Source of the DNA: a virus
Length of the DNA: 64,000 bases
Virus record (IMG/VR): IMGVR_UViG_3300045988_166195
Span: 57,023-121,022 of that record
Reading direction: 5' to 3' (one strand)
Part shown: positions 3,436 through 26,835 of the stretch, piece after piece
How the letters are laid out: every line of letters starts with the position of its first letter
Position numbering within the stretch: position 1 is the first letter of the stretch
Notes under the pieces: generated by a model
Told to the model about the DNA's origin: nothing
The model's input: the letters and a program-made list of their open reading frames with translations, nothing else
Databases searched by the model: none
Position numbers and translations under genes: made by a program

Positions 3436-3528
3436 AGCGCTACACGGGACAAGCCCGTGTATGTGAGAGGGCTGATTAACCCTCGACCGACATCCTGCGG
3501 GATGAGATAAGAAAGGAGGGTGGTCATT

Positions 3529-8011: not shown

Positions 8012-8097
8012 TCATATCGAATCTGCTTGTATGCGAGCACATTTGGCACAAAGTGTGATACCCTCGTATACGAGTGCAAACACAGTGTGCTTGCCGG

Positions 8098-10444: not shown

Positions 10445-10618
10445 CATCGATTACGTGATCGCATAGAACAAGAGGTGCGGTGAGGGTTATCCTTGCCGCA
10501 CCTCTTTTCTGTGTCTCTGCGCTTCTGTTTCTGATATGATTAGGTTGGTGAATCAACCAAATCGAAAAGATGCAAGAAAGACGTAAGAGACAGAAGAGAA
10601 AGGTGAAAGGTGGTGCAT

Positions 10619-13600
10619 ATGGCTTTCGGACGAAAGAAATCCGGTGGAGCAGCGCCTCGTGAACACGGTAGCCAAGCGTGGAACCAGTTGGGTAAGCAAG
10701 ACGAGCTTGACTCGCTGGCCTATCAGGATGTGCACGGCGACCAGCAACTAGAACGTAGCGACATCGAGGCGAAGATCTCTCCGGTGTCGCGTGAGGTCGC
10801 ATCGGCTGTTGCCGGTGTGCTTATCTTTATCCTCGTGTGGATGCTGTTCTCGTTCGGCACGATGGGTGTGGCCATGGGCCGTGACGCTCTGTGGCGTTCG
10901 TCTGTTCCGAGCTACGCGGTGCAGAACAAGGCTCTGACGAAGGAGCTGGGCAAGCCTGTGTGGAGCGAAGGGTGTTTCTCTCCAGCTCTCGAAACAGGTG
11001 AGATCGATACGTCCGATGAGACGTGCTATGAAGCTGCTGAGGATGTTCCTGAGCCACAGTGGCACGTGGATGCCGTTGCAGCAGAACAGGCTGAGCGCGA
11101 TGTAGAACTAGCGGATCGCCCAAGCGGTGCGATGGGATGGATGCTGTCATTCGATTGGCTGAAGTTCATTGTGTCGTCGATCGCTGGTCTTGTCGTGTGG
11201 GGCTTGCTGCGTATGCGACTGATGCGCAACTTGAAGGCTCAGAACTTGATGCGGGATACGACCGACATCAACCAATACAAAAACGACCAGCACGTGGCAC
11301 TTCCTGAAGAAGTGCGTGAGCGTTTCGATGTGGTGCCTGACGTGGGCGCGCACACAGGTGTAAGTGCGACGACGCTCATTTCCCACTCGATGGTCTCGAA
11401 CAAGGGCATCAAGAAGGTGGCATTTGCGCAGCGAGCAACTGAGGACATTCTCGACGAGGATGGCGATGTGGCTCTGTTCGAGGGAGAAGCTCTCACGGAC
11501 GATAACGGCGACGTTGTGACCAAGATGGTGCCGATGTTTGACGAAGAGTTTGGTACAGCTCTGTGGAACGCATCGGGGCTACCAGATAACAAGCAACTGC
11601 GTCGTCGTTTGGATCCTCGAAACGTGCCGTACAACCCAGGGAATGCCAACCGAGACAAGCTCAAGGGTTTCAACACCCTGGCTGATCTGGTGAACGGTGA
11701 GTGGGAACTTCCGATGTATGAGCCGCAGCGTCCTGCTGGCGTCTACTACGTGGATACGGCTCCTGCGAACACCATGATCCTAGCTATGACTCGTGCTGGT
11801 AAGGGTCAGACGTACATTGAGCCGATGCTCGATATTTGGATGCGTCAGAAGCGCCCGGATAACATGGTGATCAACGACCCCAAGGGCGAGCTCTTGGTGA
11901 AGAACTATGTTCGTGCCACCATGCGTGGTTTCCAGGTTGTGCAGTTCAACCTCATCAACGCCATGAAGACTGATATTTACAACCCGCTTGGAATGGCTGC
12001 TGAGGCTGCACGCGAAGGTGATCAAACCAAGTGTGCTCTGTATGTCGAGAACATCGCAGATGTCTTCTTCCCTGTGGATGGCGCGGAAGACCCTGTGTGG
12101 CCGAACGCTGCGAACAACGCGTTCAAGCGTGCGGCATACGGCCTCATCGATTACTACCTCGAAGAAGAACATCAGCTGCGTCAGTACGCGATGCGTCACG
12201 GTATGGATCAGAAGGTTCTGGAACAGAAACTCGATGCCATGTGGGGTAAGGTGACGCTCTACAACTGCTACCAGTTGTTCGTGCAGCTCACGAGTAAGAA
12301 GCGTAAGTCTCCGATGACTCAGGTGAACGAGCGCATTAAGAGTGGCTACTACGATCAGCAGTCGTCCGATCCTGATGAAGTCGACGCTCTGATCGAGCAC
12401 GACAAGATGCAGGCTGAGCGTATTGAGTTCTTGTGGGAAGGTAAGCCGGAATCTGACTTGCTCACCTTGTTCTTCAACGCCACTGAGGCGTTGCCTCAGT
12501 CGACGATGCGTACGTTGATCGCTAATGCGAACAACGCACTGCGTGCAATGGCTGGAGCTGAGAAGATGCTCGCATCTGTGTACGGTATTGCTATCACGGC
12601 AATGTCGTTCTTCACGGATCCGACGATCTCGACGTTGACCTCTGGTACTCCGTCACAGAACACGGATCTTGGCGGTCTGTCGTTCCCTCGTCGCTTCGGT
12701 GTGCGTTTCGCTCAGAACTTCACCAAGCGAGACGGTCTCATCGGTGCTCAGGCGAAGTGGGATGCGTTCGATGATCCCGAGTTGAAGCACAACCTGGGTA
12801 AGGATTTCGAGCACGAAGACACAGTGGTGCGAGAAGGATGGGCTCGTTATTACTTCGACGGTAAGTTCCCACATGACGTTGCCTACTTGCGACTGCGTTT
12901 GTTCAACCCCCAGACGGGTGTGTTGCTCAAAACGTTCTACTTCCAGTTCACGAAGGGTTACCAGCTCTCGTTGAATGGTCGTAAGTTCGTCAAGGATCCG
13001 ATCACGGGTAACAAAATCATCCGTAATGGCGTTCTCGTGGAGATGGTGAAGGGTAAGAACGGGGTTCTTGTTTCTGGTCACCTGAGTTATCCGGCAACAC
13101 GTCTGTTGGATAAGGCGGGGAGCCTCAAGACTGTACGAGAGGATGTCCCTGCGATTATCCTGTCGTCGGTTCGTTATTCGGAGCAGCCGAAGGCTGTGTT
13201 CCTGGTGACGCCACCTCACTTGATGAAGTACGCGAAGCTCGTACTGATTCTTGTGAAGCAGTTGGTGGATCTGAACTTCGATAAGTCGTACATGACGAAG
13301 GCGAACCAGAAGCCGCTCTACAAGACGCGCTTCATGCTCGACGAGCTCGGCAACTTGCAGTCCGAGGGTCACGGTATCTCGGGATTTGAGACCATGCTCT
13401 CCATTGGTCTGGGTCAGGAGCAGCAATTCACGCTGATTCTTCAGACGTTGCAGCAGGCTCGTGACGTTTACGGGGACAGCGTAGACAAGATCATTCAGGG
13501 AAACGTTGCCAATATCGTCTTCTTGAAGTCGACGGATGACACGATGATTGAGACGTTGGCCAAGATGTCCGGTACTCGCCACCGTGCGGTGCGAGACTCT

Positions 13601-14665
13601 AAGACGGTGACTCAGGATACTGAGCGTCTCATCGAAGGTCTGAACGTTGAGGGCAAAGTGTCGTACACGATCAGCGCGAAGGAAGAAAGTGTCATTGGGT
13701 ACAACGATCTGGCATTCTTGCCGGAACGTAACTCGATCATCTTTTCGGCAGGCATCTCGCCTATCTGGAACCGCAATGCGGAGATTCTTCCTATGTCGTG
13801 GCGCTTGTTCAGCAACACGATCAAGCATCCGGGCCGCGAGTACTCACTTCAGACGATTCCGACTCTCTCGTCGGCGCTTGATTTCGATGTGCGTCTTAAC
13901 CAGCCGAACTTCATGAAGATGCTGGATAAGCGCATCGAGCAAGCCGCGAATGCGGCTGAGGCGATGGAGTTGTACCAGGAGGCATACGATCTGGATGATT
14001 ATGGCATCTCGATCCTGGATCCCGATGTGTACTCGGCTGAGGTCATGGATCTCATTGCCTCGATCGAGGAAGAGCGCAGGGGCCACGACATGGAGAACGA
14101 AGAGTACGACATGGACAGTGACGAGGCTCTACGTGCTCAGTTGGGATCTGGCTACGATATGTTCAACGAGGCTGACGAGATTAACGAAGATGTCCGCGAG
14201 GATCTTGCTGCTCGTCAGGAGATGTTGGCCGATCGAGCGAAGATGCGCTACGCGGAAGGTCAGATCAGCCGTGAGCATCTGATGAGTGAGAGTGGACAGG
14301 TGTTGCACCATCTCGATGGTGACATCGTTGCTGCGTATCGTGAAGCGAAGCACGCAATGGTGGATGACGTTCGGTTCTTCCGAACAGACGAGAACGGTTC
14401 GCTGTGCTCGCTGGATGGAAAGGTCTACATCAGCCAGGGTGTGTCGAGCGATGAGCTGCGTACTCTCCAAACCGCATCGTCCGATGAGACGAGCGGTGTG
14501 TATGCGGATGATGAGTCGATCTCTGAGATCGCGGACCTGGGTTCGTGGCGAGTCCATGATGCGTTCTATAGGTTCTTGCACGGCCTGGAGTCGTGGGAGG
14601 ATCTCGGCGGAGGCACTTTCGATCGCGCTATTGCACGAGTGTTCGAACGTCGAGAGAACGAGTGA
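10619..14665 (+). CDS. Type IV secretion coupling protein-like ATPase (VirD4/TraG/TraD family) with ~700-aa C-terminal extension
   Basis: Two N-terminal TM helices. Walker A MTRAGKGQT. DPKGEL motif (MVINDPKGELL). Walker B-like RFMLDELGNL. Q-rich stretch typical of T4CPs. Acidic/aromatic C-terminal 300 aa with no known motif. Confidence 0.65.
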   Translation: MAFGRKKSGGAAPREHGSQAWNQLGKQDELDSLAYQDVHGDQQLERSDIEAKISPVSREVASAVAGVLIFILVWMLFSFGTMGVAMGRDALWRSSVPSYAVQNKALTKELGKPVWSEGCFSPALETGEIDTSDETCYEAAEDVPEPQWHVDAVAAEQAERDVELADRPSGAMGWMLSFDWLKFIVSSIAGLVVWGLLRMRLMRNLKAQNLMRDTTDINQYKNDQHVALPEEVRERFDVVPDVGAHTGVSATTLISHSMVSNKGIKKVAFAQRATEDILDEDGDVALFEGEALTDDNGDVVTKMVPMFDEEFGTALWNASGLPDNKQLRRRLDPRNVPYNPGNANRDKLKGFNTLADLVNGEWELPMYEPQRPAGVYYVDTAPANTMILAMTRAGKGQTYIEPMLDIWMRQKRPDNMVINDPKGELLVKNYVRATMRGFQVVQFNLINAMKTDIYNPLGMAAEAAREGDQTKCALYVENIADVFFPVDGAEDPVWPNAANNAFKRAAYGLIDYYLEEEHQLRQYAMRHGMDQKVLEQKLDAMWGKVTLYNCYQLFVQLTSKKRKSPMTQVNERIKSGYYDQQSSDPDEVDALIEHDKMQAERIEFLWEGKPESDLLTLFFNATEALPQSTMRTLIANANNALRAMAGAEKMLASVYGIAITAMSFFTDPTISTLTSGTPSQNTDLGGLSFPRRFGVRFAQNFTKRDGLIGAQAKWDAFDDPELKHNLGKDFEHEDTVVREGWARYYFDGKFPHDVAYLRLRLFNPQTGVLLKTFYFQFTKGYQLSLNGRKFVKDPITGNKIIRNGVLVEMVKGKNGVLVSGHLSYPATRLLDKAGSLKTVREDVPAIILSSVRYSEQPKAVFLVTPPHLMKYAKLVLILVKQLVDLNFDKSYMTKANQKPLYKTRFMLDELGNLQSEGHGISGFETMLSIGLGQEQQFTLILQTLQQARDVYGDSVDKIIQGNVANIVFLKSTDDTMIETLAKMSGTRHRAVRDSKTVTQDTERLIEGLNVEGKVSYTISAKEESVIGYNDLAFLPERNSIIFSAGISPIWNRNAEILPMSWRLFSNTIKHPGREYSLQTIPTLSSALDFDVRLNQPNFMKMLDKRIEQAANAAEAMELYQEAYDLDDYGISILDPDVYSAEVMDLIASIEEERRGHDMENEEYDMDSDEALRAQLGSGYDMFNEADEINEDVREDLAARQEMLADRAKMRYAEGQISREHLMSESGQVLHHLDGDIVAAYREAKHAMVDDVRFFRTDENGSLCSLDGKVYISQGVSSDELRTLQTASSDETSGVYADDESISEIADLGSWRVHDAFYRFLHGLESWEDLGGGTFDRAIARVFERRENE

Positions 14666-14680
14666 TTGACGTATTACCAT

Positions 14681-14718
14681 ACACAGAGGGGGTAACTAAT
14701 TAGTTACCCCCTCTGTGT
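14681..14718. terminator. Bidirectional terminator: 17-bp perfect IR acacagagggggtaact|agttaccccctctgtgt between convergent genes
   Basis: Read in sequence between the T4CP stop (14665) and the end of the minus-strand gene (14737). Confidence 0.6.
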
Positions 14719-14736
14719 ATTCAGCAGTGTGCAACA

Positions 14737-15378: not shown

Positions 15379-15558
15379 GGCGGTTCTCCTGATTCTATTA
15401 GGGGTTGTTTGTATTATTCAGTGTATCATAAATAGTCGGTTATATGTATGCGGGTTCCCTTGTGTTTCCAGTCGAAATGCGGGTTTTTGTCGGGTAGAAT
15501 GGAGGGCGTAATACCCGATCGATCCAGTGGATCGAAACTCCAGGAAGGAGAATGCGTT

Positions 15559-18500
15559 ATGCAAACGCGCAATGCCGGACTCCGGCGTTACATGTACGAG
15601 CATATGATCGCTCGCACAATCAATCGAACCTCGGAGATCACGAAGACTCCGATTCTTGTATCTCAGGGTCGACGCCTGAGGGATCTCATGGAAGAGCGTC
15701 TCAATGAACAGGGTCGTTCTTTCAACGATGGTGATCTACCTGTTACCGATGCGCTGGATGCTATCCAGAGCATCATGGAAGAGCATGTTCCCGGATACAA
15801 GCCTTTGTTCCAGCCTGCCGATACATCGAGTAAGGGCTACAAGGTTCTATATGAAGAGTTCAGGAACATGGTCGGTCTGAATGGCTCTGCTGGCGCGGCT
15901 GGTCCGCGTCTGCCGATTTCTCCGTATGATCCCCGGTGGGGGAGCCGTCGCACTGTGAAGCAGGCTGGGACCTCTATCCTGTACGTGCTCGATGGCGACA
16001 TCGCCGCATACGCAGACGGTAAGCCAAGCAACATCGAGAAAGCGACGACCTCAGAACTTACTCTGTACCGCTTGACTGATGAAGGGAAGGCCAAAGAGGC
16101 AGGCCGCGCTCTCAGCCTTGATGATGTCTCGGGTCTCACCGAGCTCATGGGTCGCATGTCGACGGCTGAGTACAACGAGGTTCGTCAGTGGGTGCTGGAC
16201 GGTGCTCGCAACCCTGAAACGGGGCGCTACAACGCCCGTCAGTTCATGAGCACTGATGCATTGGCTCGTTCCCGAGCTGTGCTGGACATGCTCGCAGAAG
16301 AGGGCATTCCGTACACGATCGAGAAGGATCTTCGCCCTGGTCAGATCCGTGCGCGTTTGACGGGTACGAATATGACGGTGCGCCTGACTGACACCCGAGA
16401 CAAAGAGCAGTGGGTGGGTCGTGTCTACGACAACGGTGCAACTCTGTACTTCTCCACGACGGCTCGTCGAGACAACAAGCAGGTGGCCTACACGCCAACT
16501 GTTGACGAGGTGTGCGACCTCGTGCGTGTTGCGCTGGGTCGACCAGTGGAGCGCAAGGATGGTAAGGGCCTCGTGGGCCGAGTGGGCGAGCGTCAGACCA
16601 GCAAGGGTAAGACGGTTCAAGAGTCGTATCTCTCCACTGGAACACTGACGAGTGCGTACAAGGACATGCCCGGTATGAACGGTGAGCAGATCGTGATTCG
16701 TCGTCAGATGAAGGAGCGTTCTGCGTCTTCGCGGTTCTTTGCCGATACGCCCGAAGGTCGTGAACAGGCATCCGGTTTCATTACCGGTGCTGTGCACAGC
16801 GCTCGTCACAATGTGATTGAGCAGCTCGATGTCGATGGTCTGATCCAGCAGTTCCGCGATCACGAGGATGCTGCCCGTGAGGGTACGTACATCCCTATGC
16901 TGTCTGGTGATCCTGATCTTGCGGCGGTTGGCCGCGCGTACTGGGATGTGCTTCGTGGCGCTGAGACAACTCTGCTGAAGCCTGAGGCTACGCGAGCTGA
17001 GTACGCTGAGGCGACGGGTCTGCTTGACGACATGGATCAAGAGAGCGATCTGTCGGGCGTTCACGACATGCTGGCCGGTTCCGTGGCGTACACGGGTACC
17101 CCGGAAGAACGTGTTCGTGCGCATCTTCGGGATCTTCTCGATACCCAGATCGGTATCGATGAGCCTATCGACTCTGATGACTTCGTGTTCGATCCAGTGC
17201 GCGTTGCTCGTTACATGACGAGTGAACACGGCCAGTGGCGTAACAACGATGATCTCGTGGCTGCTATGCGCAGCGTTGGTATGCCTCAGGAGAAGATCGT
17301 CGGGGAGTCGTTCTATTCCAACACGTTCCGCGATCGACTGATCACCTTCGATGAGTCCACGGCTTTGCCGATGGAGACGGTCGAAGATGAGTTCACTCAG
17401 TCGATGCTTCAGGTTGTGTCTGACACGCTGGAGTCCTGCGCTGTGACGCCTGGTTCTATCCGCGTCGACGCCAACGGCGTTGTGGAGTGGACGGGCTCCA
17501 TCATGCGCTCGCAGACAGGTAAGGAAGAGCCCGTGAGCGGTACGATCGGACAGATCTTTGCTCGCGGTGAGAACGGTGAGATCATCACACGGTTCAATTC
17601 CGGTAACGATCTGATGATCGTGCCTGGTTTTGACGCACGTGTGGTGGCACAGAAGCCTGGAGAGAACAAGTCCCTCGAAGAGCGCACCCGGCTGATCGGT
17701 TACGAGCAGCAGATGAGTGACGCGATTCGATACCGAGTTCAGGCTGATGTGCTCTCAGGTCGTTCTCGTGTGGGTGAACCCGCCTCGTTGAACAGTGTGT
17801 ACCGTCGTCTGTCGGATACGCGCCATCGCGCGGATCACTACGAGCGCGCTCTCGAAGAGGGTATGGATCGGAAGATCCTTGATGCCATTCTTGCTACCGA
17901 AGCGCGTCGTGTGCGTTACCCGAACGCTTTGCGTGATGGGTCGACGATCGACGCTGACTTCCGTGCATCTCGTGCTCGGGAACAGGGTATTGGTGGCGAT
18001 CCGGCCAACGACACGACCATGGATCCGTGGGTGTTGACCGGCGGTCGCAACATGTCGTTGCTCAGCGAAGAAGCCGATGGCTACTTCGATCCGATCATGA
18101 CATCGGGCGGTGTGAACCAGGGCGTGACTCGTTATCTGGTGTCCGGTGCGCAGGTGAATCCTGATGGATCGATCGTACGTTCTGATAAGAACGACCGTGC
18201 ACCGCTGATGTTGACTGAGCAGGCTCAGCTCATGAGCTACGATCCGTTCGATCGTCAGCAGATGACGACTTCTAATCTCATGAACGCATCGTCTGTGACG
18301 AAGCCTGTGGGCACGGCGTTCATGACTGCTGGTGGTTGGACGATGGAGGACTCCATCGTTGTCTCGGCTGACTTTGCCAAGCAGTACCGCGTTCGCGGCA
18401 CTGACGGTCAGATGCGCGATCTCATCGTTGGTGACAAGATCTCCGATATGCACGGCAACAAGGGTGTTATCTCGCTCATTGTTGATCGCAATGCCGATCT

Positions 18501-21009
18501 GTCTCCTGATGAGATTGAAGAGTTGCATGGATCGACTGACATGATGACGCTTTTCCGGGAGAATCCGGGTTTGGATGTCGTCATGGCACCGTTCAGCGCT
18601 GTGTCTCGTTTCAACGGCGGCTCGGCACGTGAGGCGATGCGGCAAACGTCTGCGCTTCATCTGCCAAACGGCACAACCGTTGAGGCAGGTATTGGTCAGG
18701 TGTCGTTTATCGGCACGCATATGACCGTGGATGCGAAGACGGCTGCATACGATGAAGCTGCGATCCGAGCTGGACAAGGTCGTAAGGCGTCGTCTCAGCT
18801 TGCATGGGCCTTGCAGTCCCAGGGCTGCGATAAGGTGTTGGGGCAGATGTATGGTGGCAACCTGCAAGCTCTTGCGCAGCTGCGTGAAATGGCTCTGGTG
18901 TGCGGTTTGGACATCGAGCCTGATGGCACCTTGCGCGATGGTCATGATGATCTTGCTGTTGGTGGGCAGCGCCGTCTCATCGAGATGGGCGATGTGCCGC
19001 TGACTGAACGTGGATCGTTCGACGTGCGTCGCGTTCGTAACGATTTCGCGTCGCTGATTGGTGACGCTGGTGGTGACATGGAGATTCCGTTCCCGCTGAC
19101 GATGCCAACGGGCGCTCGTACGCCTCATGCAACAGACACCACCTGGCGTGTGCCGGTGCTGAGTTCGCATCTGCGATCGGGCCAGGATCTGGATGACGGT
19201 ACGTCGACGGTCCATGATTACACGTATCGTTACCTTGCGATCCGTGAATGGTCGCTGCGCTACAAGCATGCGGCTGATCGCGCTGCGTCTGGTGAGCTGA
19301 CGGGTAAGGAGCTTTCCGATGCTCGTCGAACGATGGCTGAGGCTATGCACCGTGCGCAGACGGCTTACGATGGCATTGCGCAAGACATCATGCGTCGCCG
19401 GTTTACCGGCAAGCGCAATGTCTTCAAGGAAGGTCTCATGGCTTCGCGTCTGCCGCACTCGGCTACCGCTGTGTGGACGGGTGATCCTCGCTTGGACATC
19501 GACCAGGTTGGTGTTGGCCCGGAGCTGGCGAAGAAACTACACTTGCGCGATGGTGACTACGCGCTTGTGTGGCGTGATCCTGTTCTGCGTGATGCGGGTG
19601 TCCGTTACATGCGTGTTGCGATCGATGACCGTCTCACGGGTGTGAGTGTGAATCCAAACATGGTCAAGTGCTTCGACGGCGACTTCGACGGTGACTCTGT
19701 GGCTGTTGTGAAGCTGGGTGATGGTCCGGCACATGAGCAAGCGCTGGAGCGTCTGACTGTCGAGGCTAACCTCATCGATCTCGGTCAGAGCATGGACGAC
19801 GAGGGTCGTTACCCTCTTGCGATGCACAACGCGCTCGATGTGAAGGTGTCGCAGCACTACGACTCTCGTCATGCGGATGCGATGGATGAGGTTCATCAGC
19901 GCGCCAACGATGCGTACTACGATCTGACTGAAGGGGATGCTACTCGTGAGCAGTTCCTGGAGGCGGGTCGTGATGTCGTTGATGCAGCGTCGTATATGTA
20001 CCGTGATGCGCTTCAGCATCAGTACGGTGAGGCTGTGTTGTCGTTTGGTTCCGTTCAGGAGCACATGAAGTCTGTGGCGGCTGCGTGTATTGAGACGGGA
20101 GCTAAAGGCTCGCCTAAGAAGATGCTGGATTACGCTCGGTACATCGGCTATGACCCTGAGAACCAGGTGGATCTGGTGACCACGTGTGTGACTCGTGGGG
20201 AACAGCAGGGCACCATGTTTGCGACGGCTGTGAAGTCGTTTGGTACCGGTGTTGCCGGTACGTTCTCGCAGCGTGGTGTGCGAGCTCTTCGTAACGATGA
20301 GCTCAAGGCTGTGTTGGAGCTGACCTACCCGGTGACGCAGAGTATTTTGCAGGCTAAGCACGACCCTGTGGATGCTCGTCATCGCTATGAGTTGCTGATG
20401 GGTCCGGCGCGAAGCTTGTGGCGTGGTCAGATGATTGCACAGGATGCCAACGGTGTGTGGAACACTGTGACGGATGACGATCATAAGCCGGTTCAGGCTA
20501 CCAAGGATCAGTGGGTCGCTGTGTTCTCGCAGTTCTATGGCGATGATGGTCTGGGTGTGGCTGTGAACAGTGACAACATCACGAAGGTTGCAAATGCGCT
20601 CAGCGATAGCAACGGGGTGATGGTGAATCTGGAGGACGAGAAGGTCATTGAACAGCTCGCTTCTCCGATGGATCGTCTGGCTTACGGCGGTGACTTCACC
20701 ACGATGCAAGCTCTGGCTGAGACTCGGGCAAACTTGTTCGAGGGTCGGTGGAACGTTACGTTTGCACCAGCTCGTGTGCGTGAGGTGCTGGAGGCTGATG
20801 TGGAGACGCAAGCTGAGGCACCGGTGATCGCCATGGAAGACACTGTGGCTCGCGTGGACCGTGATGAGAAGATCGGTCGACGTAAGTCGACATCGTGGGC
20901 TGTCCCAGTTCGCTCGAACACGGGTGCCAGCGCAGCTGAGCGTTACGGTTTGACGACACAAGACAACAGTGAGACAGACAAGTCTGTCGATGATGGTTTC
21001 GAGCTGTAA
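15559..21009 (+). CDS. Giant single-chain multisubunit-type RNA polymerase (fused beta-like + beta-prime-like, two double-psi beta-barrels)
   Basis: Beta hallmark VGDKISDMHGNKGVISLIV followed by NPGLDVVMAPFSAVSRFNGG (cf. E. coli beta GDKMAGRHGNKGVIS ... NPLGVPSRMNIGQ). Beta-prime hallmarks ALVWRDPVLRDAGVRYMRVA (cf. NRAPTLHRLGIQAF) and VKCFDGDFDGDSVAVV (NADFDGD catalytic loop). ATG 15559 with GGAAGGAG RBS; the ORF track's upstream start 15448 is less likely. Ends ...KSVDDGFEL. Confidence 0.75.
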   Translation: MQTRNAGLRRYMYEHMIARTINRTSEITKTPILVSQGRRLRDLMEERLNEQGRSFNDGDLPVTDALDAIQSIMEEHVPGYKPLFQPADTSSKGYKVLYEEFRNMVGLNGSAGAAGPRLPISPYDPRWGSRRTVKQAGTSILYVLDGDIAAYADGKPSNIEKATTSELTLYRLTDEGKAKEAGRALSLDDVSGLTELMGRMSTAEYNEVRQWVLDGARNPETGRYNARQFMSTDALARSRAVLDMLAEEGIPYTIEKDLRPGQIRARLTGTNMTVRLTDTRDKEQWVGRVYDNGATLYFSTTARRDNKQVAYTPTVDEVCDLVRVALGRPVERKDGKGLVGRVGERQTSKGKTVQESYLSTGTLTSAYKDMPGMNGEQIVIRRQMKERSASSRFFADTPEGREQASGFITGAVHSARHNVIEQLDVDGLIQQFRDHEDAAREGTYIPMLSGDPDLAAVGRAYWDVLRGAETTLLKPEATRAEYAEATGLLDDMDQESDLSGVHDMLAGSVAYTGTPEERVRAHLRDLLDTQIGIDEPIDSDDFVFDPVRVARYMTSEHGQWRNNDDLVAAMRSVGMPQEKIVGESFYSNTFRDRLITFDESTALPMETVEDEFTQSMLQVVSDTLESCAVTPGSIRVDANGVVEWTGSIMRSQTGKEEPVSGTIGQIFARGENGEIITRFNSGNDLMIVPGFDARVVAQKPGENKSLEERTRLIGYEQQMSDAIRYRVQADVLSGRSRVGEPASLNSVYRRLSDTRHRADHYERALEEGMDRKILDAILATEARRVRYPNALRDGSTIDADFRASRAREQGIGGDPANDTTMDPWVLTGGRNMSLLSEEADGYFDPIMTSGGVNQGVTRYLVSGAQVNPDGSIVRSDKNDRAPLMLTEQAQLMSYDPFDRQQMTTSNLMNASSVTKPVGTAFMTAGGWTMEDSIVVSADFAKQYRVRGTDGQMRDLIVGDKISDMHGNKGVISLIVDRNADLSPDEIEELHGSTDMMTLFRENPGLDVVMAPFSAVSRFNGGSAREAMRQTSALHLPNGTTVEAGIGQVSFIGTHMTVDAKTAAYDEAAIRAGQGRKASSQLAWALQSQGCDKVLGQMYGGNLQALAQLREMALVCGLDIEPDGTLRDGHDDLAVGGQRRLIEMGDVPLTERGSFDVRRVRNDFASLIGDAGGDMEIPFPLTMPTGARTPHATDTTWRVPVLSSHLRSGQDLDDGTSTVHDYTYRYLAIREWSLRYKHAADRAASGELTGKELSDARRTMAEAMHRAQTAYDGIAQDIMRRRFTGKRNVFKEGLMASRLPHSATAVWTGDPRLDIDQVGVGPELAKKLHLRDGDYALVWRDPVLRDAGVRYMRVAIDDRLTGVSVNPNMVKCFDGDFDGDSVAVVKLGDGPAHEQALERLTVEANLIDLGQSMDDEGRYPLAMHNALDVKVSQHYDSRHADAMDEVHQRANDAYYDLTEGDATREQFLEAGRDVVDAASYMYRDALQHQYGEAVLSFGSVQEHMKSVAAACIETGAKGSPKKMLDYARYIGYDPENQVDLVTTCVTRGEQQGTMFATAVKSFGTGVAGTFSQRGVRALRNDELKAVLELTYPVTQSILQAKHDPVDARHRYELLMGPARSLWRGQMIAQDANGVWNTVTDDDHKPVQATKDQWVAVFSQFYGDDGLGVAVNSDNITKVANALSDSNGVMVNLEDEKVIEQLASPMDRLAYGGDFTTMQALAETRANLFEGRWNVTFAPARVREVLEADVETQAEAPVIAMEDTVARVDRDEKIGRRKSTSWAVPVRSNTGASAAERYGLTTQDNSETDKSVDDGFEL

Positions 21010-21022
21010 GACTCGGTGAGAG

Positions 21023-21063
21023 GGGCGGGTTGTTTCGCGTGGTTGAAGCAACCCGCTTCCTCT
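21023..21063 (+). terminator. Imperfect GC hairpin after RNAP gene (gaggggcgggttg...caacccgcttcctc)
   Basis: Read in sequence. The trailing T-run is weak. Confidence 0.3.
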
Positions 21064-21094
21064 TCATGAGCCGGTGTATCTTGATATGGCAGCG

Positions 21095-21125
21095 ATAGTA
21101 CAATATACTGATATATGAGTCGAAA
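21095..21125 (+). promoter_or_regulatory. Degenerate copy of conserved upstream motif (GTACAATATACTGATATATGAGTCGAA)
   Basis: Aligns with GTGCGATATACTGGTATACGAGTCGAA upstream of paralog 3. Confidence 0.3.
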
Positions 21126-21153: not shown

Positions 21154-22365
21154 ATGTCTGTGTCAGCTATGTCAGAGTGGATGGCGAAGTTCCCCCAGGA
21201 TTGGGTCGAGATTCGTTATGGTCTTGAGGCTCATGAGTGGGCTGGTTCGCTTTCTGATCGAGTGATGGCGATTATCAATAAGAATGACCCCGCACGAGAA
21301 GATCGGGTTAATGCATTGCTGCGTGACAATGCTGTGCTTCTTGAAAGAAGGTTTCAGGGTCACAGGCGTCCAGGACCTGACGAGGACTTTATTGATTATG
21401 CCGAGTTCCGTGATGCCATTTCTCATGTTGTAGAAAATGGTATTTCTATTAACGATGAAACCTATTCGCAAATCCATTATGTGGATAGTACATGTGTGCG
21501 TTCTCCGACAAAGGCGCTGCTGCGTCCGCATCATGAGGTATATCCCAATGCCAACGTACAGGCTTTTTATCGTCGGTCTTTGCGCGAGGGGAAGCCTTCA
21601 AAACCTTCGGATGGATATATCAAAAATGTGTATGGTCTGAGAGGCGATGAATGGACGGGCACATCAGTCGATGTGGGGGCGATCATCAATGATCGCTCAT
21701 CGAGGATAGCATCGATAAGGGATCAGCGTGTCAATGATTTCTTGCGTGATCAGGTGGCTGTTTTCGAGATGGGCATGGAGAAGCTTGAGGCCAAGAACGC
21801 AACATATAACGATATGGGAGTAGGTGCTCGTGCTTATGGTTATGATCTGCGTGATGCGATTGAGGAAGCCGTAGAGAATGGTATTTTGATTAATGCTGAA
21901 ACGATGAACGCTATCAAGAGGGTAGAGCATGATTACGTGACTCCATATGTCGGGGAATCGTTGGCGAACCAATATGACAAGTTGTATGAGCTTAATGAAG
22001 CACGGAAACATCATCATGAGATTGCGCCATCGTTTGCATCATCACATGAAAAGAAGTCTGAGCCAGCGATTCATTCGGTCATTACCGGTGGAAGTGGTCA
22101 TGGTAAAGAACAGGTTCAGCTTGCTAACGTTTTGAGCGGACGGATGCCCTCGATGGGTCGCGATACAGACGGCCAGTCTTTGGCACCGTCTACCCCGTCT
22201 CAGGGTTCTCGTCAGGGGTCTATTGGGGCAGCGCTTCCCGGTAGTTCCATTACTGTTGGTCGTCGGACGCCTCGTGTGTCGCCCACTGCTGGTACGGCTC
22301 GTCGTATGGGTATTTCTGAGTCTCAGGTACAGACCCCAAGCGTCGATGACGGTTTCGAGCTGTGA
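21154..22365 (+). CDS. Tandem-repeat protein, paralog 1 of 3; C-terminus ...RRMGISESQVQTPSVDDGFEL
   Basis: Internal repeats RYGL(E/D)xHEWxG(S/T)LSDRVxAIINKxDPxxExRVNALLRD and a second helical repeat (GILINxE(A/T)MxAIKRVE). Pro/Ser-rich linker, conserved C-terminal 40 aa. RBS aaagga-N8-ATG at 21154. Confidence 0.65.
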   Translation: MSVSAMSEWMAKFPQDWVEIRYGLEAHEWAGSLSDRVMAIINKNDPAREDRVNALLRDNAVLLERRFQGHRRPGPDEDFIDYAEFRDAISHVVENGISINDETYSQIHYVDSTCVRSPTKALLRPHHEVYPNANVQAFYRRSLREGKPSKPSDGYIKNVYGLRGDEWTGTSVDVGAIINDRSSRIASIRDQRVNDFLRDQVAVFEMGMEKLEAKNATYNDMGVGARAYGYDLRDAIEEAVENGILINAETMNAIKRVEHDYVTPYVGESLANQYDKLYELNEARKHHHEIAPSFASSHEKKSEPAIHSVITGGSGHGKEQVQLANVLSGRMPSMGRDTDGQSLAPSTPSQGSRQGSIGAALPGSSITVGRRTPRVSPTAGTARRMGISESQVQTPSVDDGFEL

Positions 22366-22392
22366 TCGCCATGTGATCATGGGTTGACACCA

Positions 22393-22440
22393 TGAAGAAG
22401 CAGGTCTCGCCTTCGGGTGGGGCCTGCTTCTTTGTCTGTA
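22393..22440 (+). terminator. Rho-independent terminator (gaagcaggtctcgccttcgggtggggcctgcttc + tttgtctgtat)
   Basis: Hairpin plus T-run read directly between paralog 1 and paralog 2. Confidence 0.5.
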
Positions 22441-22476
22441 TACGTTGCAATGGTGCGATATACTGGTATACGAGCC
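22441..22476 (+). promoter_or_regulatory. Conserved upstream motif ACGTTGCAATGGTGCGATATACTGGTATACGAGCC (element-specific promoter candidate)
   Basis: Near-identical copy at 23391-23427 (ATCGTTGCAATAGTGCGATATACTGGTATACGAGTCG). Related pieces occur at 21095, 8063, 54980 and 63091. Confidence 0.5.
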
Positions 22477-22509
22477 AAACACGTGGCGATGATGGAAAGG
22501 AAGGGTGTT

Positions 22510-23322
22510 ATGACGCTTTATTACGATCAGGAAATCAAGGAGTATACCGATGCCGGGATCAGGCGATACAAAGGTCTTGATCCACATGAAGAGCTGGATG
22601 CACCAACCGAGCGGTATGGTCTTGATCCACATGAGTGGACAGGAACATTGGCCGATAAGGTGACAGCGATTATCGGTAAAAATACGCCCGAGAAGGAAAC
22701 GCATGTGAATGCGTTGTTGCGCGATGCGGCAAAATCATTTATGAAGAATGCCAAATATGCGGAAATGAATGCCCATAATGATGAAACTACCTTTAAGAAG
22801 GTAATGTCTGTCAACGGTGATGATTTGCGTGCTGCTATGTCCGAAGCGTCCTTGGGCGGCATTCTTATTAACGATGAAGCGATGGATGCTATCAAACGTG
22901 TGGAAAAGCGTTATCTTTCATATTGGAGTTTTGATTTCGGTTTTGATTCTCTGACGCATGCATACGATGAGCTGTATAAACTTAATGATGCGCGAGCTCA
23001 TTTCCGTGAGAGTGCGCAAGTGATGCGAGGTGCTGCGAATACCCCAGCGATTTCAAATCCAGAGTTTGATCGTTTCGCCCCGCCTCAGGGTTCACGTGTG
23101 ACGACGGTTCCGCCGCCTGTGCGGTCTGCGCCCTCTATCCCGTCTGCTCTTTCTATGTCCGCTGTGTCCACTCAGCGAACTGGTTCTATCCAGGCTGTGC
23201 TTCCAGGCAGTGGTATCAAGGTGAGTCGAGCGGCACCTCATGTTCCGCAGACTGCCCGTCGTATGGGTGTTGTTGAGTCACAGGTGCAGACTCCGAATGT
23301 TGATGACGGGTTCGAGTTGTGA
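22510..23322 (+). CDS. Tandem-repeat protein, paralog 2 of 3; C-terminus ...RRMGVVESQVQTPNVDDGFEL
   Basis: Same repeat units as paralog 1 (YGLDPHEWTGTLADKVTAIIGKNTPEKETHVNALLRDAAK; ILINDEAMDAIKRVEKRY; FDRFAPPQGSRVTTVPPPVR). Start ATG 22510 after ggaaaggaagggtgtt. Confidence 0.65.
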   Translation: MTLYYDQEIKEYTDAGIRRYKGLDPHEELDAPTERYGLDPHEWTGTLADKVTAIIGKNTPEKETHVNALLRDAAKSFMKNAKYAEMNAHNDETTFKKVMSVNGDDLRAAMSEASLGGILINDEAMDAIKRVEKRYLSYWSFDFGFDSLTHAYDELYKLNDARAHFRESAQVMRGAANTPAISNPEFDRFAPPQGSRVTTVPPPVRSAPSIPSALSMSAVSTQRTGSIQAVLPGSGIKVSRAAPHVPQTARRMGVVESQVQTPNVDDGFEL

Positions 23323-23349
23323 CGCTGACGTGATTATGTGATGGGGTAG

Positions 23350-23392
23350 GTCTTGCTTGAAAGCGGGGCCTACTTCATCGTTTTGCCATGTT
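23350..23392 (+). terminator. Weak hairpin + T-rich tract after paralog 2
   Basis: ggtaggtcttgcttgaaagcggggcctacttcatcgttttgcc read directly. Confidence 0.25.
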
Positions 23393-23427
23393 ATCGTTGC
23401 AATAGTGCGATATACTGGTATACGAGT
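23391..23427 (+). promoter_or_regulatory. Second copy of conserved upstream motif (TTGCAATAGTGCGATATACTGGTATACGAG)
   Basis: 31/33 identical to the copy at 22441-22476. Confidence 0.5.
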
Positions 23428-23457
23428 CGAATGCAACTAAATGAAAGGAAGATGGTC

Positions 23458-24786
23458 ATGTCGACGATATGGTATGAAGGCCCCACCGATGGCAACATCG
23501 AGGGGCGTTACGGTCTCGATTCGCACGAGTGGGTGGGGTCGCTGTCCGATAGGGTGGCGACGATCATTGACAAGGATGATCCTTGGAAGGAAACTCATGT
23601 GAATGCGCTCTTGCGTGATGGCGTGGAGTTCTATGCGCAGAAGTCGCAGGATCATCCAGAATTGAGTGATGATGATCAGATGCGCGATGCTATCTCTTAT
23701 GTGGCGCATAGCGGTGTTCTCATCGATGATGAGACTCTGTTGGCTCTTACGGATGCGGATGACAAGTACGTCATCCCGTTTGGTGCAGAGTCTTTGATGT
23801 ACGAATACAACAAGGTGCATCAGCCTGATTACGGACGGATTTATCAGCGTCAGCGTGATGCTGCGCAGTTGCCGTACGCGGAGGCAACAGACGAAGAGAT
23901 CAAGGAGCACTATGGCCTTGATCCACATGAGTGGAAAGGGAGTCTTGCCGATAAGGTGATGGCGATTGTTAACAAGAATACGCTTGACAAGGAAACGCAT
24001 GTGAATGCGCTTCTACGTGATGGTGCACGGCTGTTCGCTCAGAATATGGAAGCTCAACCGGTATCGGGTGTGAGTGAAGATGAGATGAGGTACGCGGTGG
24101 AGTCTGGTGGCGATGAACTACGCGCTGCCATCTCTGACGCATCGTGGGCTGGTGTTCTCATCAACGATGAAGCGATGGAAGCCATCAAGCATGTGGAGAA
24201 GGAGTACATCACTGAGTTCGGTGGAGACTCTCTGACGCATGCGTATGATCAGATGCGTAAGCTGAACGATGCACGCGCTCATTATCGTGAGTCTGCGAAG
24301 GAGATGCGTGGCTCTGCGCCTGCTGCGCCTGCTGCGCCTGTTACCCAGGCACCTTCGAGCTTTGATCGTTTCGCCCCGCCTCAGGGTGCTCGTGTGACGA
24401 CTGTTCCGTCGCCTGTGCGCACTGTTGGGTCTGCTCGGTCTACTCAGGCAGCTCAGTCTGCACTGTCTGTGCCTCCTATTCCGCAACCTCCGAAGACGCC
24501 GGGATCCCAGGTTCGCACAGGTGGTCCTGTGCGGGTGGGTAATGTCGCCAAGGACTGGCTGGCTGCGAATGGTCGTGACGAGAAGGGTCGGCCTCTTGCG
24601 TCTACATCTACGCCGTCTACGCCTCAGGTTCCGGCTCAGCGATCGGGTTCGATCCAGGCTTCGCTTCCTGGTAGCGGTGTCACCGTGGGTCGATCGACGC
24701 CGCGTGTGCCACCCACTGCCCATCGTATGGGTATCCCTGAGCCCCAGGCGCAAACCCCAAGCGTTGATGACGGCTTCGAGCTGTGA
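23458..24786 (+). CDS. Tandem-repeat protein, paralog 3 of 3 (two copies of each repeat unit); C-terminus ...HRMGIPEPQAQTPSVDDGFEL
   Basis: RYGLDSHEWVGSLSDRVATIIDKDDPWKETHVNALLRDG and HYGLDPHEWKGSLADKVMAIVNKNTLDKETHVNALLRDG. Pro/Ala/Ser-rich linker. ATG 23458 has the best RBS spacing. Confidence 0.65.
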   Translation: MSTIWYEGPTDGNIEGRYGLDSHEWVGSLSDRVATIIDKDDPWKETHVNALLRDGVEFYAQKSQDHPELSDDDQMRDAISYVAHSGVLIDDETLLALTDADDKYVIPFGAESLMYEYNKVHQPDYGRIYQRQRDAAQLPYAEATDEEIKEHYGLDPHEWKGSLADKVMAIVNKNTLDKETHVNALLRDGARLFAQNMEAQPVSGVSEDEMRYAVESGGDELRAAISDASWAGVLINDEAMEAIKHVEKEYITEFGGDSLTHAYDQMRKLNDARAHYRESAKEMRGSAPAAPAAPVTQAPSSFDRFAPPQGARVTTVPSPVRTVGSARSTQAAQSALSVPPIPQPPKTPGSQVRTGGPVRVGNVAKDWLAANGRDEKGRPLASTSTPSTPQVPAQRSGSIQASLPGSGVTVGRSTPRVPPTAHRMGIPEPQAQTPSVDDGFEL

Positions 24787-24828: not shown

Positions 24829-26490
24829 ATGGCTCGTCCACCTCGTCAACTTCCAGCGCCTCGTTACGGGGGTGAAGTTGGTCCGCAGAAGGTTCAAGAC
24901 GAAACTGCGACAATGGCTGTGACCAAGGAGCAGATTTTCGACAAGAAGCCTGAACCTGTTCACGCGGTAGAGCCAAAGCCTGCGCTCGATTGGGCGCAGC
25001 AGCTGAGGCTCGATATGCGCTATCACGCTGATGGGTATCTTCACGCTCTCAGCCAGATAAATCTGAAGACCATGAAGCGAAAGGCTGACATCGCTTCTCG
25101 CATGAACGATCTTCAGGGTAAGCACAAGGCTTATGCGTCGATGATGGTGCTCAGCGCATTGGTACCGTTGAAAGACGGCGTATCGATGTCGGCTGTGGTT
25201 GAATCTGTTGGCATGGGTGTCACTATGTGGATGTTGTCGCCCAACTTCCGCCAACAGGTGAAGTCATTCGCTCGTGATGCGCGTATGGCTGTCGAAGACA
25301 TGGCTGAGGCGCGTCGACGCAGTCAGTCGAAACAGTTGCATGATAAGGCCGATCAACATCGAGAGAAGCATGGTGGTGAATTGCCGCCCTCTCTGAAGCG
25401 TCGTCTGGAGCGTATCGAAGCGAAGGAGCGCAATGGTCGCATCCCGTTCAATGAAGCGAGTGCGGCTTTGACGCATCTTGGTCTGAGCGAAGCGATGTTC
25501 AACCAGATGCGGCAACCGGGTGTGGATCCTGTTGAGGTTCAGGAAGGCTATGCGCACCTGATGGAGCGCTTCTGGGATGATGTCCACAAGGACGGCTTGG
25601 ATCCCGAAAAGGTGAACACCGTCAGTCGTATGCTCATGGGCCAACGGATGCGTTATGAGCCCCACTGGGCGAATGCGTTCGTTGAAACCGCTCATGGCGA
25701 GGTCGATATGGACATGGTGGAGACGGTGGACGCTCAGACGGGTGAACCCCATCGAACGTGGACGGGTATCTGGTCCACGCGCATGGGTGAGCCTATCGTG
25801 GGAGGTTCTTTCACTGTCCGTCCTCCGTACAACGAGATGCAGCATGAGTTGTCTCTGAGTACGTGCATGGCTCGTGAGATGGAGCGTGCAGCGCTGAATG
25901 GTAACATTGCGGATCTGAATGAGTCGCTGCTTGCCTACGGTTCTGCGTGGTCTGTTCGAGACAAGAACCTGGACGTGCACAGCGTTCCTGGTGCGATGGG
26001 TGAGAAGATTCGTCGAGCTCGTCGTGGTCTCGATGCCATGGAATTCGATGGTTTTGACCGCGATCAGCAGCGAGACATCTATGCGACATCGTTCGTTCAC
26101 GCCATGGACATGGTGGCGAAGGCTCACCCGGACATCGAGCGTCACTGGGCGCAGCAGTACGGTTCTCAATGGCGATCGGAGATGCGAGACTTCGCAGCGA
26201 CGCCAGAGGAAACATACAACCGGTGGCAACGGGGGGAGTTTTACTCTGATGCACGTGAATCTCCAGGGCATGACAATGCCCATGTGGATCCGCACACGGA
26301 ACGAATGAGGGAAGATTCCAAGCGTCGACGCAGCGCGTACAACCGTGCGCGTGACAACCAGGAGTACAACGCTCATGAGACATCGGCGTTCAAGGCTGAA
26401 GACTTTGAACTCAATGATGTCGACGACGAGTTTGACATGGGTGGGTACGATCGACCTAATGACAACGATGGTTTCGAACCATCTCTATGA
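24829..26490 (+). CDS. Hypothetical 553-aa protein; C-terminus ...DMGGYDRPNDNDGFEPSL (variant of shared tail)
   Basis: RBS gaaaggaggacaagATG. No recognised domain. Charged, helical composition. Confidence 0.6.
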   Translation: MARPPRQLPAPRYGGEVGPQKVQDETATMAVTKEQIFDKKPEPVHAVEPKPALDWAQQLRLDMRYHADGYLHALSQINLKTMKRKADIASRMNDLQGKHKAYASMMVLSALVPLKDGVSMSAVVESVGMGVTMWMLSPNFRQQVKSFARDARMAVEDMAEARRRSQSKQLHDKADQHREKHGGELPPSLKRRLERIEAKERNGRIPFNEASAALTHLGLSEAMFNQMRQPGVDPVEVQEGYAHLMERFWDDVHKDGLDPEKVNTVSRMLMGQRMRYEPHWANAFVETAHGEVDMDMVETVDAQTGEPHRTWTGIWSTRMGEPIVGGSFTVRPPYNEMQHELSLSTCMAREMERAALNGNIADLNESLLAYGSAWSVRDKNLDVHSVPGAMGEKIRRARRGLDAMEFDGFDRDQQRDIYATSFVHAMDMVAKAHPDIERHWAQQYGSQWRSEMRDFAATPEETYNRWQRGEFYSDARESPGHDNAHVDPHTERMREDSKRRRSAYNRARDNQEYNAHETSAFKAEDFELNDVDDEFDMGGYDRPNDNDGFEPSL

Positions 26491-26502: not shown

Positions 26503-26835
26503 ATGTTGGGTTTCCCAAAGGATGACGACACGATCGGCGGTCTGTTCGGTGTCAACGAAGAGGATCGTCACGCATGGGCCAAGGAGCGTCAGATGAGGCT
26601 GGAGCGTCAGCAGATGCAAAAGCCTGGTCTGGCGAAGAAGGCAACGATGGCTGCTTACGAAATCGCTGCTGCTGGCATCACTTCGCAGATGCGTGCGGCG
26701 TACATCGAAGAGGCCCGTGGCACGATGGCGAAAGAGACGACCACGACGACTCGTAGTCAGTCTCGAAATATTGATCCCGAACTCGAAGAGATTCGACGGG
26801 AAGCACCGTCTGGTGGCTACGAATTCGTTGGCTGA
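26503..26835 (+). CDS. Hypothetical 110-aa protein; C-terminus ...APSGGYEFVG
   Basis: RBS gaaaggagtgaccaATG, 12 nt after the previous stop. Last gene of the plus-strand block. Confidence 0.5.
   Translation: MLGFPKDDDTIGGLFGVNEEDRHAWAKERQMRLERQQMQKPGLAKKATMAAYEIAAAGITSQMRAAYIEEARGTMAKETTTTTRSQSRNIDPELEEIRREAPSGGYEFVG

Follow-up and report, generated by a model that had tools for sequence, protein, structure and literature searches.

Three tandem genes for related repeat proteins, here named P1 to P3, lie on a 64,000-nt stretch of DNA (the window) that covers positions 57,023 to 121,022 of the IMG/VR virus record IMGVR_UViG_3300045988_166195, and they raise the question of what such a family does for the element that carries it. 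The first-pass annotation, made from the letters of the window, described the genes as a diversifying family of modular proteins and proposed anti-restriction or anti-defence functions, which are a guess. It overlooked a C-terminal tail shared by the paralogs and the RNA polymerase encoded upstream, the conjugative context, and a recurring order of the surrounding genes. The explanation tentatively proposed here is that the tail acts as a type IV secretion signal.

Three paralogs share a C-terminal tail with an RNA polymerase

The tandem array was confirmed as three plus-strand genes encoding proteins of 403 aa (P1, 21154..22365), 270 aa (P2, 22510..23322), and 442 aa (P3, 23458..24786), each preceded by an AGGA-type ribosome-binding site. 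All three proteins have the same layout, in which one or two repeat units are followed by a linker rich in Pro, Ser, Ala, and Gly and by a conserved tail of about 45 aa. In agreement with the unequal module copy number noted earlier, P1 contains two units (21199-21603 and 21610-22038; tail at 22219-22362), P2 a single unit (22594-23040; tail at 23176-23319), and P3 two units (23488-23892 and 23890-24327), followed by a basic disordered linker and a tail at 24634-24783.

The conserved C-terminus ending in DDGFEL, also pointed out earlier, is the tip of this tail, and the last residues are VDDGFEL in all three proteins. The same tail was found on the product of the upstream gene (15448..21009, plus strand), a single-chain, fused beta/beta'-like two-barrel RNA polymerase of 1853 aa (Pfam Rpb2_6, 5.3e-7; Rpb1_2, 1.2e-6) in which both double-psi beta-barrel signatures are present, including the DFDGD metal-binding motif. 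The polymerase ends in SVDDGFEL, and its last 45 aa or so (about 20872-21006) are homologous to the tails of the paralogs (BLASTP of 60 aa against 60 aa, E = 2e-5). The pattern common to polymerase and paralogs is (I/V)GR..P.V(P/R) ... A.R(M/Y)G(I/L) ... VDDGFEL-COOH.

Among the paralog homologs retrieved, which are down to 56% identical overall, 112 of 120 terminate in VDDGFEL. Variants of the tip occur side by side in polymerase and paralogs of the same locus: EDDGFEL is accompanied by ADGGFEL and EASFEL in L007, DDAGFDL by DDGFEF in L078, and DLGFDL by DDEFEL in L079, the tips of polymerase and paralogs being closely related in each locus. Most of the 77 polymerase homologs also end in acidic plus aromatic or hydrophobic residues (e.g., DSFQL, DDYQL, GYEL, DGFEYGL, GPELG, and GGFEL). 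Similar tips were found in genes downstream of the polymerase in L087 (Microbacterium), L088 (Arthrobacter), and L090, and in one of the two downstream genes in L089 (Granulicoccus).

Within the window, acidic-aromatic C-termini were nearly confined to plus-strand genes near those for the relaxase and the type IV coupling protein. They were found in a 396-aa protein (..DLDDPEF), the relaxase (..MDSMELG), whose C-terminus is kept across loci, a 190-aa protein (..EIDEPEF), the polymerase, P1 to P3, and the 553-aa (..DFELNDVDDEFDM..NDNDGFEPSL) and 110-aa (..GGYEFVG) proteins encoded downstream of P3. One minus-strand gene passed the loose filter used for tips; it encodes a helicase ending in ..VEDIIT, without an aromatic residue or an EL tip. 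The small proteins flanking the relaxase gene (3-923 and 3520-4092), with the ends ..DLDDPEF and ..EIDEPEF, resemble the tails of actinobacterial single-stranded DNA-binding proteins (SSBs). The 190-aa protein, which had no Pfam or NCBIfam match, may be a plasmid SSB analogue. A second pair of paralogs, of 386 and 287 aa (L080:3041-4201 and L039:4874-5737), ends in ..DDYRPHDIEL and ..QDFRPVDL, and a 132-aa neighbor of this pair ends in ..GDDPIEL; these three proteins may be further tail carriers on the opposite side of the plasmid.

In the AlphaFold2 model of P3 (60-sequence alignment), the two units form two all-alpha bundles with a predicted local distance difference test score (pLDDT) of about 75-93. 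The stretch of residues 285-442 is disordered save for a short helix at 361-370, and the tail region (residues 379-442) has a pLDDT of about 30 and is predicted to be disordered. Disorder is usual for secretion signals. As in type IV substrates, an unstructured, conserved C-terminal segment is common to unrelated cargo, and the element that encodes it also encodes a relaxase and a type IV coupling protein.

Repeat units, homology, and evolutionary rate

The two repeat modules distinguished earlier are real sequences, but they always occur together, as the two parts of a single unit that is about 135-145 aa long. An alignment of the five units (two in P1, one in P2, and two in P3) has invariant Y-G-L, E-W, N..LRD, R, G..I..E, and L positions. 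The units are acidic, with an isoelectric point (pI) of 4.3-5.3, and the linker is basic (pI about 11.5-11.8). The linker, described as hypervariable in the first-pass annotation, deserves this term between the paralogs, where large differences arise via insertions and deletions. Among orthologs, where it includes conserved islands, it does not, as its ratio of nonsynonymous to synonymous substitution rates (dN/dS) of 0.28 is close to those of the units (0.20-0.26).

The remote-homology search that the first-pass annotation had called for was performed, and the repeat unit matched neither a housekeeping domain nor any other known homolog. An exhaustive search of 1.84 billion representative proteins with a hidden Markov model of the unit returned 21 matches, 19 of which belong to this plasmid lineage. 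P0129 and P0140 were rejected as relatives of the unit; they are unrelated beta-rich repeat proteins that matched through repetition. No credible match to P1-P3 was found in Pfam, PHROGs, PADLOC, or NCBIfam, no match at the DNA or protein level among 50,697 phage and 72,556 plasmid records, and none below E = 0.2 when the unit profile was compared with PDB sequences. The unit was not found elsewhere in the element when searched for, and fold searches with it returned generic helical bundles only. Neither profile nor fold similarity was detected between the paralogs and the known anti-defence families ArdA, ArdB/KlcA, ArdC-N, Ocr, and PsiB. WXG100 proteins and type VII secretion were also considered and rejected: despite the W-x-G in the units, Pfam returned no match, the predicted fold differs from a two-helix hairpin, and an EccC-type ATPase was not seen.

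Copy number was compared among 19 related loci, as had also been suggested. The number of paralog genes per locus ranges from 1 to 3 and that of all units from 1 to 5, and the window holds the maximum of both. Evolutionary rates were estimated for ten orthologous P3-type genes by the pairwise Nei-Gojobori method. The dN/dS was 0.26 in unit 1, 0.20 in unit 2, 0.28 in the linker, and 0.20 in the tail, compared with 0.06 in the polymerase, 0.05 in the 553-aa gene, 0.06 in the gene for the histone-like protein HU, and 0.10 in the 110-aa gene. The dN/dS of the family exceeds that of the flanking genes 4-5 times. For dN alone, the factor is 5-9 in the units and linker and about 2 in the tail. The evolution of the paralogs is clearly accelerated; positive selection is not thereby proven. 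The earlier picture of a diversifying family is therefore supported as far as a modular, copy-number-variable, and accelerated family is concerned, and not supported with respect to diversifying selection, the average dN/dS being well below 1. Synonymous divergence was uneven along the P3-type genes (dS of 0.71 in unit 1 versus 0.22 in the tail), which suggests recombination or gene conversion between paralogs or plasmids.

Intergenic hairpins and a conserved promoter/operator-like block

Terminator-like hairpins on the plus strand were identified downstream of the stop codons of the polymerase gene (21018..21064, GC-rich; dG -36.2 kcal/mol, z -4.64), P1 (22392..22435; dG -42.2 kcal/mol, z -5.88), and P2 (23339..23379; dG -34.4 kcal/mol, z -6.80). 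The tracts that follow them are merely U-rich (CUUCCUCUUC, UUUGUCUGU, and UCAUCGUUUUG), and a simple terminator scanner caught fragments of the hairpins only. No hairpin was found in the 42-nt gap between P3 and the 553-aa gene, and because of this short gap without a hairpin, P3 is probably co-transcribed with that gene. The claim that each paralog is an independent transcription unit thus needs to be narrowed: the succession of hairpin, motif, and gene is as described, which makes separate transcription of P1 and P2 plausible, and the claim does not extend to the 3' side of P3.

Upstream of each paralog, a promoter/operator-like block was found on the plus strand. The block of P1 (21081..21119) consists of TTGATA-17-TATACT followed by ATATACTGATATATGAG, with 10 of 12 positions agreeing with the sigma-70 consensus, and this same variant of the block recurs upstream of P1-type genes in L007 and L011. 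The block of P2 (22443..22474) is a conserved 32-nt sequence, CGTTGCAATGGTGCGATATACTGGTATACGAG, that can be read as TTGCAA-16-TATACG or as a TATACT -10 element, and it includes the near-palindrome CTGGTATACGAG. The corresponding 32-nt block of P3 (23395..23426) stands out by its invariance across loci. TTGCAA-16-TATACG was read by eye at the P2 and P3 sites.

The motif ATATACTGRTATAYGAG occurs without mismatch at 21103, 22458, and 23410. With up to 3 mismatches allowed, 5 matches were found in the 64 kb versus 0.23 expected by chance, and the two remaining matches, at 6111 and 8058, have 3 mismatches each. The 32-nt block, CGTTGCAAT(A/G)GTGCGATATACTGGTATACGAG, is near-invariant and located 35-45 nt upstream of every P2/P3-type gene (20 loci from 19 distinct plasmids), with L021 as the sole exception, where two substitutions lie just upstream of the block core. 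The bases around it vary, and the proteins encoded downstream are down to about 70% identical. Sigma-70-like sites were not above chance across the region (6 found versus 8.7 expected), and the chief support for a promoter-like function of the block is its invariance across plasmids. The near-palindrome CT(G/C)GTATACGAG inside the block looks like an operator.

In two distant relatives, a lone paralog begins 45-50 nt past the stop codon of the polymerase gene; no hairpin was found there, and a remnant of the motif is recognizable. The motif was also considered as a general promoter of the plasmid polymerase, which is unlikely, the full motif being located upstream of paralog genes only. Weaker look-alikes occur at 8055 and in L071. 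The site at 8055-8074, GTGATACCCTCGTATACGAG, holds a perfect 12-bp palindrome, CTCGTATACGAG, that differs in one base from the core of the paralog block. A 760-aa gene starts about 90 nt downstream of this site, and a similar site is present at L071:3009. The site at 8055-8074 may be a second one for a regulator that also acts on the paralog block.

The paralogs occupy a variable slot in a conserved plasmid module

The window encodes a MobL-family relaxase (1053..3392, plus strand; Pfam MobL, 1e-62) and a type IV coupling protein of the TraG/VirD4 family (1351 aa; 10610..14665, plus strand; Pfam T4SS-DNA_transf, 1.9e-19, TraG-D_C, and TrwB_AAD_bind). P1-P3 follow the relaxase gene on its strand, at a distance of 18-22 kb. 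The window further encodes HU, MazF, helicases, a clamp loader, DNA polymerase, primase, and RecJ. The element was followed for about 45 kb past the window along IMG/VR contig 168611, bringing the total covered to about 109 of 118 kb, and this extension contained genes for topoisomerase III, a methyltransferase, a peptidoglycan hydrolase, a ParM-like actin, a sortase, a dNMP kinase, and a ribbon-helix-helix protein. The search for capsid, portal, terminase, and tail genes in the part covered yielded a lysozyme domain and nothing else.

Homologs of the paralogs were exclusively metagenomic, several of them from the human mouth, and the contigs that carry them measure 117-127 kb. On one scaffold of 233 kb the region is present twice, the copies being 116.6 kb apart, a spacing that implies circularity and a size of about 117 kb for the element. 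The sole genome match was an uncultured Actinomyces metagenome-assembled genome. Exact-sequence look-ups of P3 and of the relaxase of the window returned no record. By the gene content of the roughly 109 kb covered, the element, which has a size of about 118 kb and comes from human oral Actinobacteria, is a conjugative plasmid and not a phage. Related contigs are listed as viruses in IMG/VR (such as IMGVR_UViG_3300045988_168611; loci L018, L028, L039, L041, L071, and L080), and one member of the paralog family is included in the BFVD viral structure set; the IMG/VR virus label is likely a misclassification driven by phage-like replication genes.

The polymerase gene belongs to a module with the order coupling protein, two-barrel RNA polymerase, slot, 553-aa protein (24829..26490, plus strand, 42 nt downstream of P3), 110-aa protein (26503..26835, plus strand), and HU. 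The 553-aa protein is a conserved partner of the polymerase across Actinobacteria; it is homologous to an 810-aa gene product of Arthrobacter encoded at the same position (E = 2e-37), and the 110-aa gene keeps its place in related elements. In Microbacterium and Arthrobacter, the order is AAA+ ATPase, membrane protein, coupling protein, polymerase, (small protein), 553-aa homolog, protein of about 110 aa, and HU, and the Granulicoccus locus follows the module order up to the end of its contig. The coupling protein gene lies upstream of the polymerase gene in all three loci, either adjacent to it or separated from it by one minus-strand gene. The loci of Microbacterium and Granulicoccus have no gene in the slot that holds P1-P3 in the window. 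The Arthrobacter slot is filled by a 235-aa protein with VLLNDDALSAIQ, whose similarity to the paralogs was weak in hhalign (probability 4.7%); that this protein is a very distant relative of the paralogs is a possibility only. From this conserved flanking order, with the slot empty or differently filled in the three genera, it follows that the paralogs occupy a variable slot within an old, conserved module.

The 77 polymerase homologs, 31-97% identical and nearly all 1765-2327 aa long, come from Arthrobacter, Microbacterium, Actinomadura, Streptomyces, Granulicoccus, and other hosts, and those that carry a name are annotated just as hypothetical proteins or generic RNA polymerase. In the PDB, the polymerase matched the P23-45 virion RNA polymerase and Rpb1, and its nearest solved relative is the tape-measure-fused virion RNA polymerase of Thermus phage P23-45.

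Several further observations were made on the element. The gene at 4238-8011 encodes a ClpB/ClpC-like double AAA+ ATPase with a LAGLIDADG intein-like insert at about residues 835-920, and the AAA+ relative in Arthrobacter (L088) has the same LAGLIDADG-interrupted arrangement. A perfect 42-bp palindrome with 21-nt arms and no spacer (14679-14720), between the convergent coupling protein gene and a minus-strand open reading frame (ORF), probably serves as a terminator for both directions, a protein-binding site being another possibility. The GC skew of the plus strand was positive in all 2-kb windows (0.05-0.21), even at 27-64 kb where genes lie on the minus strand, which suggests strand-asymmetric replication or transfer and not an effect of transcription. 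A UvrD-like helicase is encoded by a single ORF of 1046 aa in the window (29133-32273) and is split in L003/L004 (16122-19683) into ORFs of 377 and 630 aa about 535 nt apart, suggesting an insertion or disruption there.

Export as a possible role of the tail, and alternatives

In the explanation proposed, all carriers of the tail would be recognized by this shared signal at their C-termini, with the type IV coupling protein as the candidate receptor, perhaps assisted by the neighboring ClpB-like AAA+ unfoldase. The polymerase and the helical proteins would then leave for the recipient cell along with the DNA, where the polymerase would initiate transcription of the plasmid. The fast-evolving, copy-number-variable helical proteins would be effectors of establishment or counter-defence that act early and are directed against variable host targets. 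Their synthesis appears to be governed by the dedicated, strongly conserved promoter/operator that has been duplicated together with the gene. We consider this explanation somewhat short of an even chance. The broader proposition, that a widespread family of actinobacterial plasmids exports a single-chain two-barrel RNA polymerase and accessory proteins, the helical proteins among them, through the mating channel into the recipient by means of one shared C-terminal signal, basic and then acidic/aromatic, that the coupling protein would read, is possible and should be regarded as doubtful.

Several points weigh against export. C-terminal signals of the VirB/D4 type are positively charged, not acidic, and acidic-aromatic tails also serve as generic docking motifs in DNA metabolism, as in the C-terminus of SSB. 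The 599-aa protein encoded downstream of the polymerase in Granulicoccus is without the tip. No clear VirB4-type ATPase was recognized within the roughly 109 of 118 kb, the sole trace of one being an NCBIfam match of a 294-aa protein far below threshold (21.6 bits versus a cut-off of 590); several large proteins of the element carry no annotation. As for the effector role, the paralogs have no similarity to known anti-defence proteins, and an average dN/dS below 1 also fits mere relaxed constraint. What the analysis shows is the anatomy of the locus, the homology and conservation of the tail, the variation in copy number, the accelerated rate, and the plasmid context, whereas the receptor, the export, and the effector role are inferred.

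Alternatively, the tail would be unrelated to export and dock a shared intracellular partner, such as a transcription or nucleoid complex of the plasmid that involves HU, the SSB-like 190-aa protein, or the 553-aa protein. The helical proteins would then be accessory or regulatory factors of the polymerase, for example competing for its docking site. Across Actinobacteria, the paralogs keep a conserved order with the genes for HU, the polymerase, and the two proteins of 553 and 110 aa, which is in accordance with this, as are the apparent co-transcription of the lone paralog with the polymerase in the distant relatives and the basic linker (pI about 11.5), which could touch nucleic acid. The tail also has an acidic run and a hydrophobic/aromatic end after more than 100 disordered linker residues and in this resembles SSB-type tails; it ends in F-E-L and not in (I/P)PF, and the cargo is all-alpha without an oligonucleotide/oligosaccharide-binding fold. 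However, the Microbacterium and Granulicoccus elements keep the polymerase without the slot protein, which is therefore not a core polymerase subunit. Moreover, the slot protein evolves 4-5 times faster than the polymerase, and acidic-hydrophobic tips are likewise present on the relaxase, the canonical export substrate, and on its neighbors. Docking of this kind is considered unlikely, and it is the alternative that survives best.

It is also conceivable that the tail marks its carriers for degradation or unfolding by a Clp-type AAA+ ATPase of the plasmid or by a host protease, so that they would be short-lived. C-terminal tags are common in recognition by Clp-type ATPases, the element has two Clp/ClpB-like AAA+ genes (4238-8011 and 33389-35263), and an AAA+ gene is found two genes upstream of the coupling protein gene in the loci of Microbacterium, Arthrobacter, and Granulicoccus. 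However, no protease partner such as ClpP was identified beside these genes, and the tail is acidic, unlike the hydrophobic tags of the ssrA type, which leaves this possibility quite improbable.

Even less probable is that the paralogs are unimportant plasmid ORFans whose tail is a relic of a duplicated 3' end of the polymerase gene. The lack of a known domain in the paralogs and the absence of the slot protein from the Microbacterium and Granulicoccus loci would fit this view. In contrast, the dN/dS of about 0.2 indicates purifying selection, 112 of 120 homologs have kept the tip unchanged, the 32-nt block upstream does not vary although its flanks do, and polymerases of the family from different genera retain a tip of an analogous kind.

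The reading that agrees least with the gene content is that of a phage whose tail-bearing proteins are targeted to the capsid, packaged, and injected, as are the polymerases of N4, crAss-like phages, and P23-45: the listing of related contigs in IMG/VR and of a family member in BFVD, the virion RNA polymerase as nearest solved relative, and the phage-like replication genes are set against the lack of capsid, portal, terminase, and tail genes in the roughly 109 of 118 kb (lysozyme domain only), the presence of the MobL relaxase, coupling protein, ParM-like partition protein, and topoisomerase III, and the lack of a match among 50,697 phage records, and this reading has hardly any likelihood.

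The establishment of conjugative plasmids in Gram-positive hosts is poorly understood, and it is unclear which proteins travel and what signal transfers them. The present locus offers a short, invariant C-terminal peptide that is common to a plasmid polymerase and a fast-evolving protein family and is encoded beside a coupling protein gene. The shared tail is the most valuable outcome of the analysis, as it provides a testable hypothesis on protein co-transfer in Gram-positive conjugation. If export through the type IV system is true, the tail would be a new secretion signal, previously undescribed in Gram-positive type IV secretion. The plasmid would then bring its own transcription machinery, as a counterpart of phage virion polymerases, and the paralogs would be early effectors of a new class, on plasmids that are abundant in the human mouth. 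If the proteins are not transferred, the tail would still mark an unexplored protein-docking system, in a module conserved in the three actinobacterial genera examined and with related polymerase tips in several further genera.

Comparison with known systems

Plasmid-encoded proteins that move through conjugative type IV systems have been described for an F plasmid (PMC8406263), and co-delivered primases have been reviewed together with phage virion polymerases (PMC5512222). The translocated proteins of pED208/F (ParA, ParB, SSB, PsiB, and PsiA), the TraC primase of RP4, and ArdC are encoded near transfer genes, as are the paralogs (PMC8406263, PMC5512222). Early action in the recipient and recognition by the coupling protein, as proposed here, would be further likenesses. 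In contrast, the paralogs have no sequence or fold similarity to these proteins, the host is a Gram-positive actinobacterium, and the putative signal is an acidic/aromatic tip.

Anti-defence genes are a feature of the leading regions of conjugative plasmids (PMC11541004). Like such genes, the paralogs are fast-evolving and variable in copy number and have a promoter-like block of their own. With the anti-restriction DNA mimics ArdA and Ocr they share acidic units (pI 4.3-5.3) and the setting of a conjugative plasmid, and they differ from them in having no Pfam, PADLOC, or fold match.

The virion RNA polymerases of phages (N4 gp50, crAss-like gp66, and the tape-measure-fused enzyme of P23-45) are likewise supplied by the element, possibly being delivered as proteins, and the two-barrel catalytic core of the plasmid polymerase is related to that of the P23-45 enzyme. 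The plasmid differs in being conjugative and without virion genes, and its helical paralogs have no phage counterpart.

Signals of type IV effectors are Arg-rich tails in the VirB/D4 system of Agrobacterium and Glu-rich segments with a hydrophobic end in the Dot/Icm system of Legionella. As in these systems, the plasmid tail is a disordered extreme C-terminus on unrelated cargo. It consists of a basic segment followed by an acidic tip, and DDGFEL-COOH fits neither consensus.

The tails of SSB (DDDIPF; DDEPPF in mycobacteria) and the acidic tails of T7 gp2.5 and gp4 are docking peptides. The tail of F TraD binds TraM (PMC8406263). In all of these, as here, a flexible linker leads to an extreme C-terminus that combines acidic residues with an aromatic one, and the ends ..DDPEF and ..DEPEF of the plasmid neighbors are close to the SSB tail class. 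The present tail differs from that class in its F-E-L end in place of P-F and in being borne by many different plasmid proteins, which implies one receptor for many ligands.

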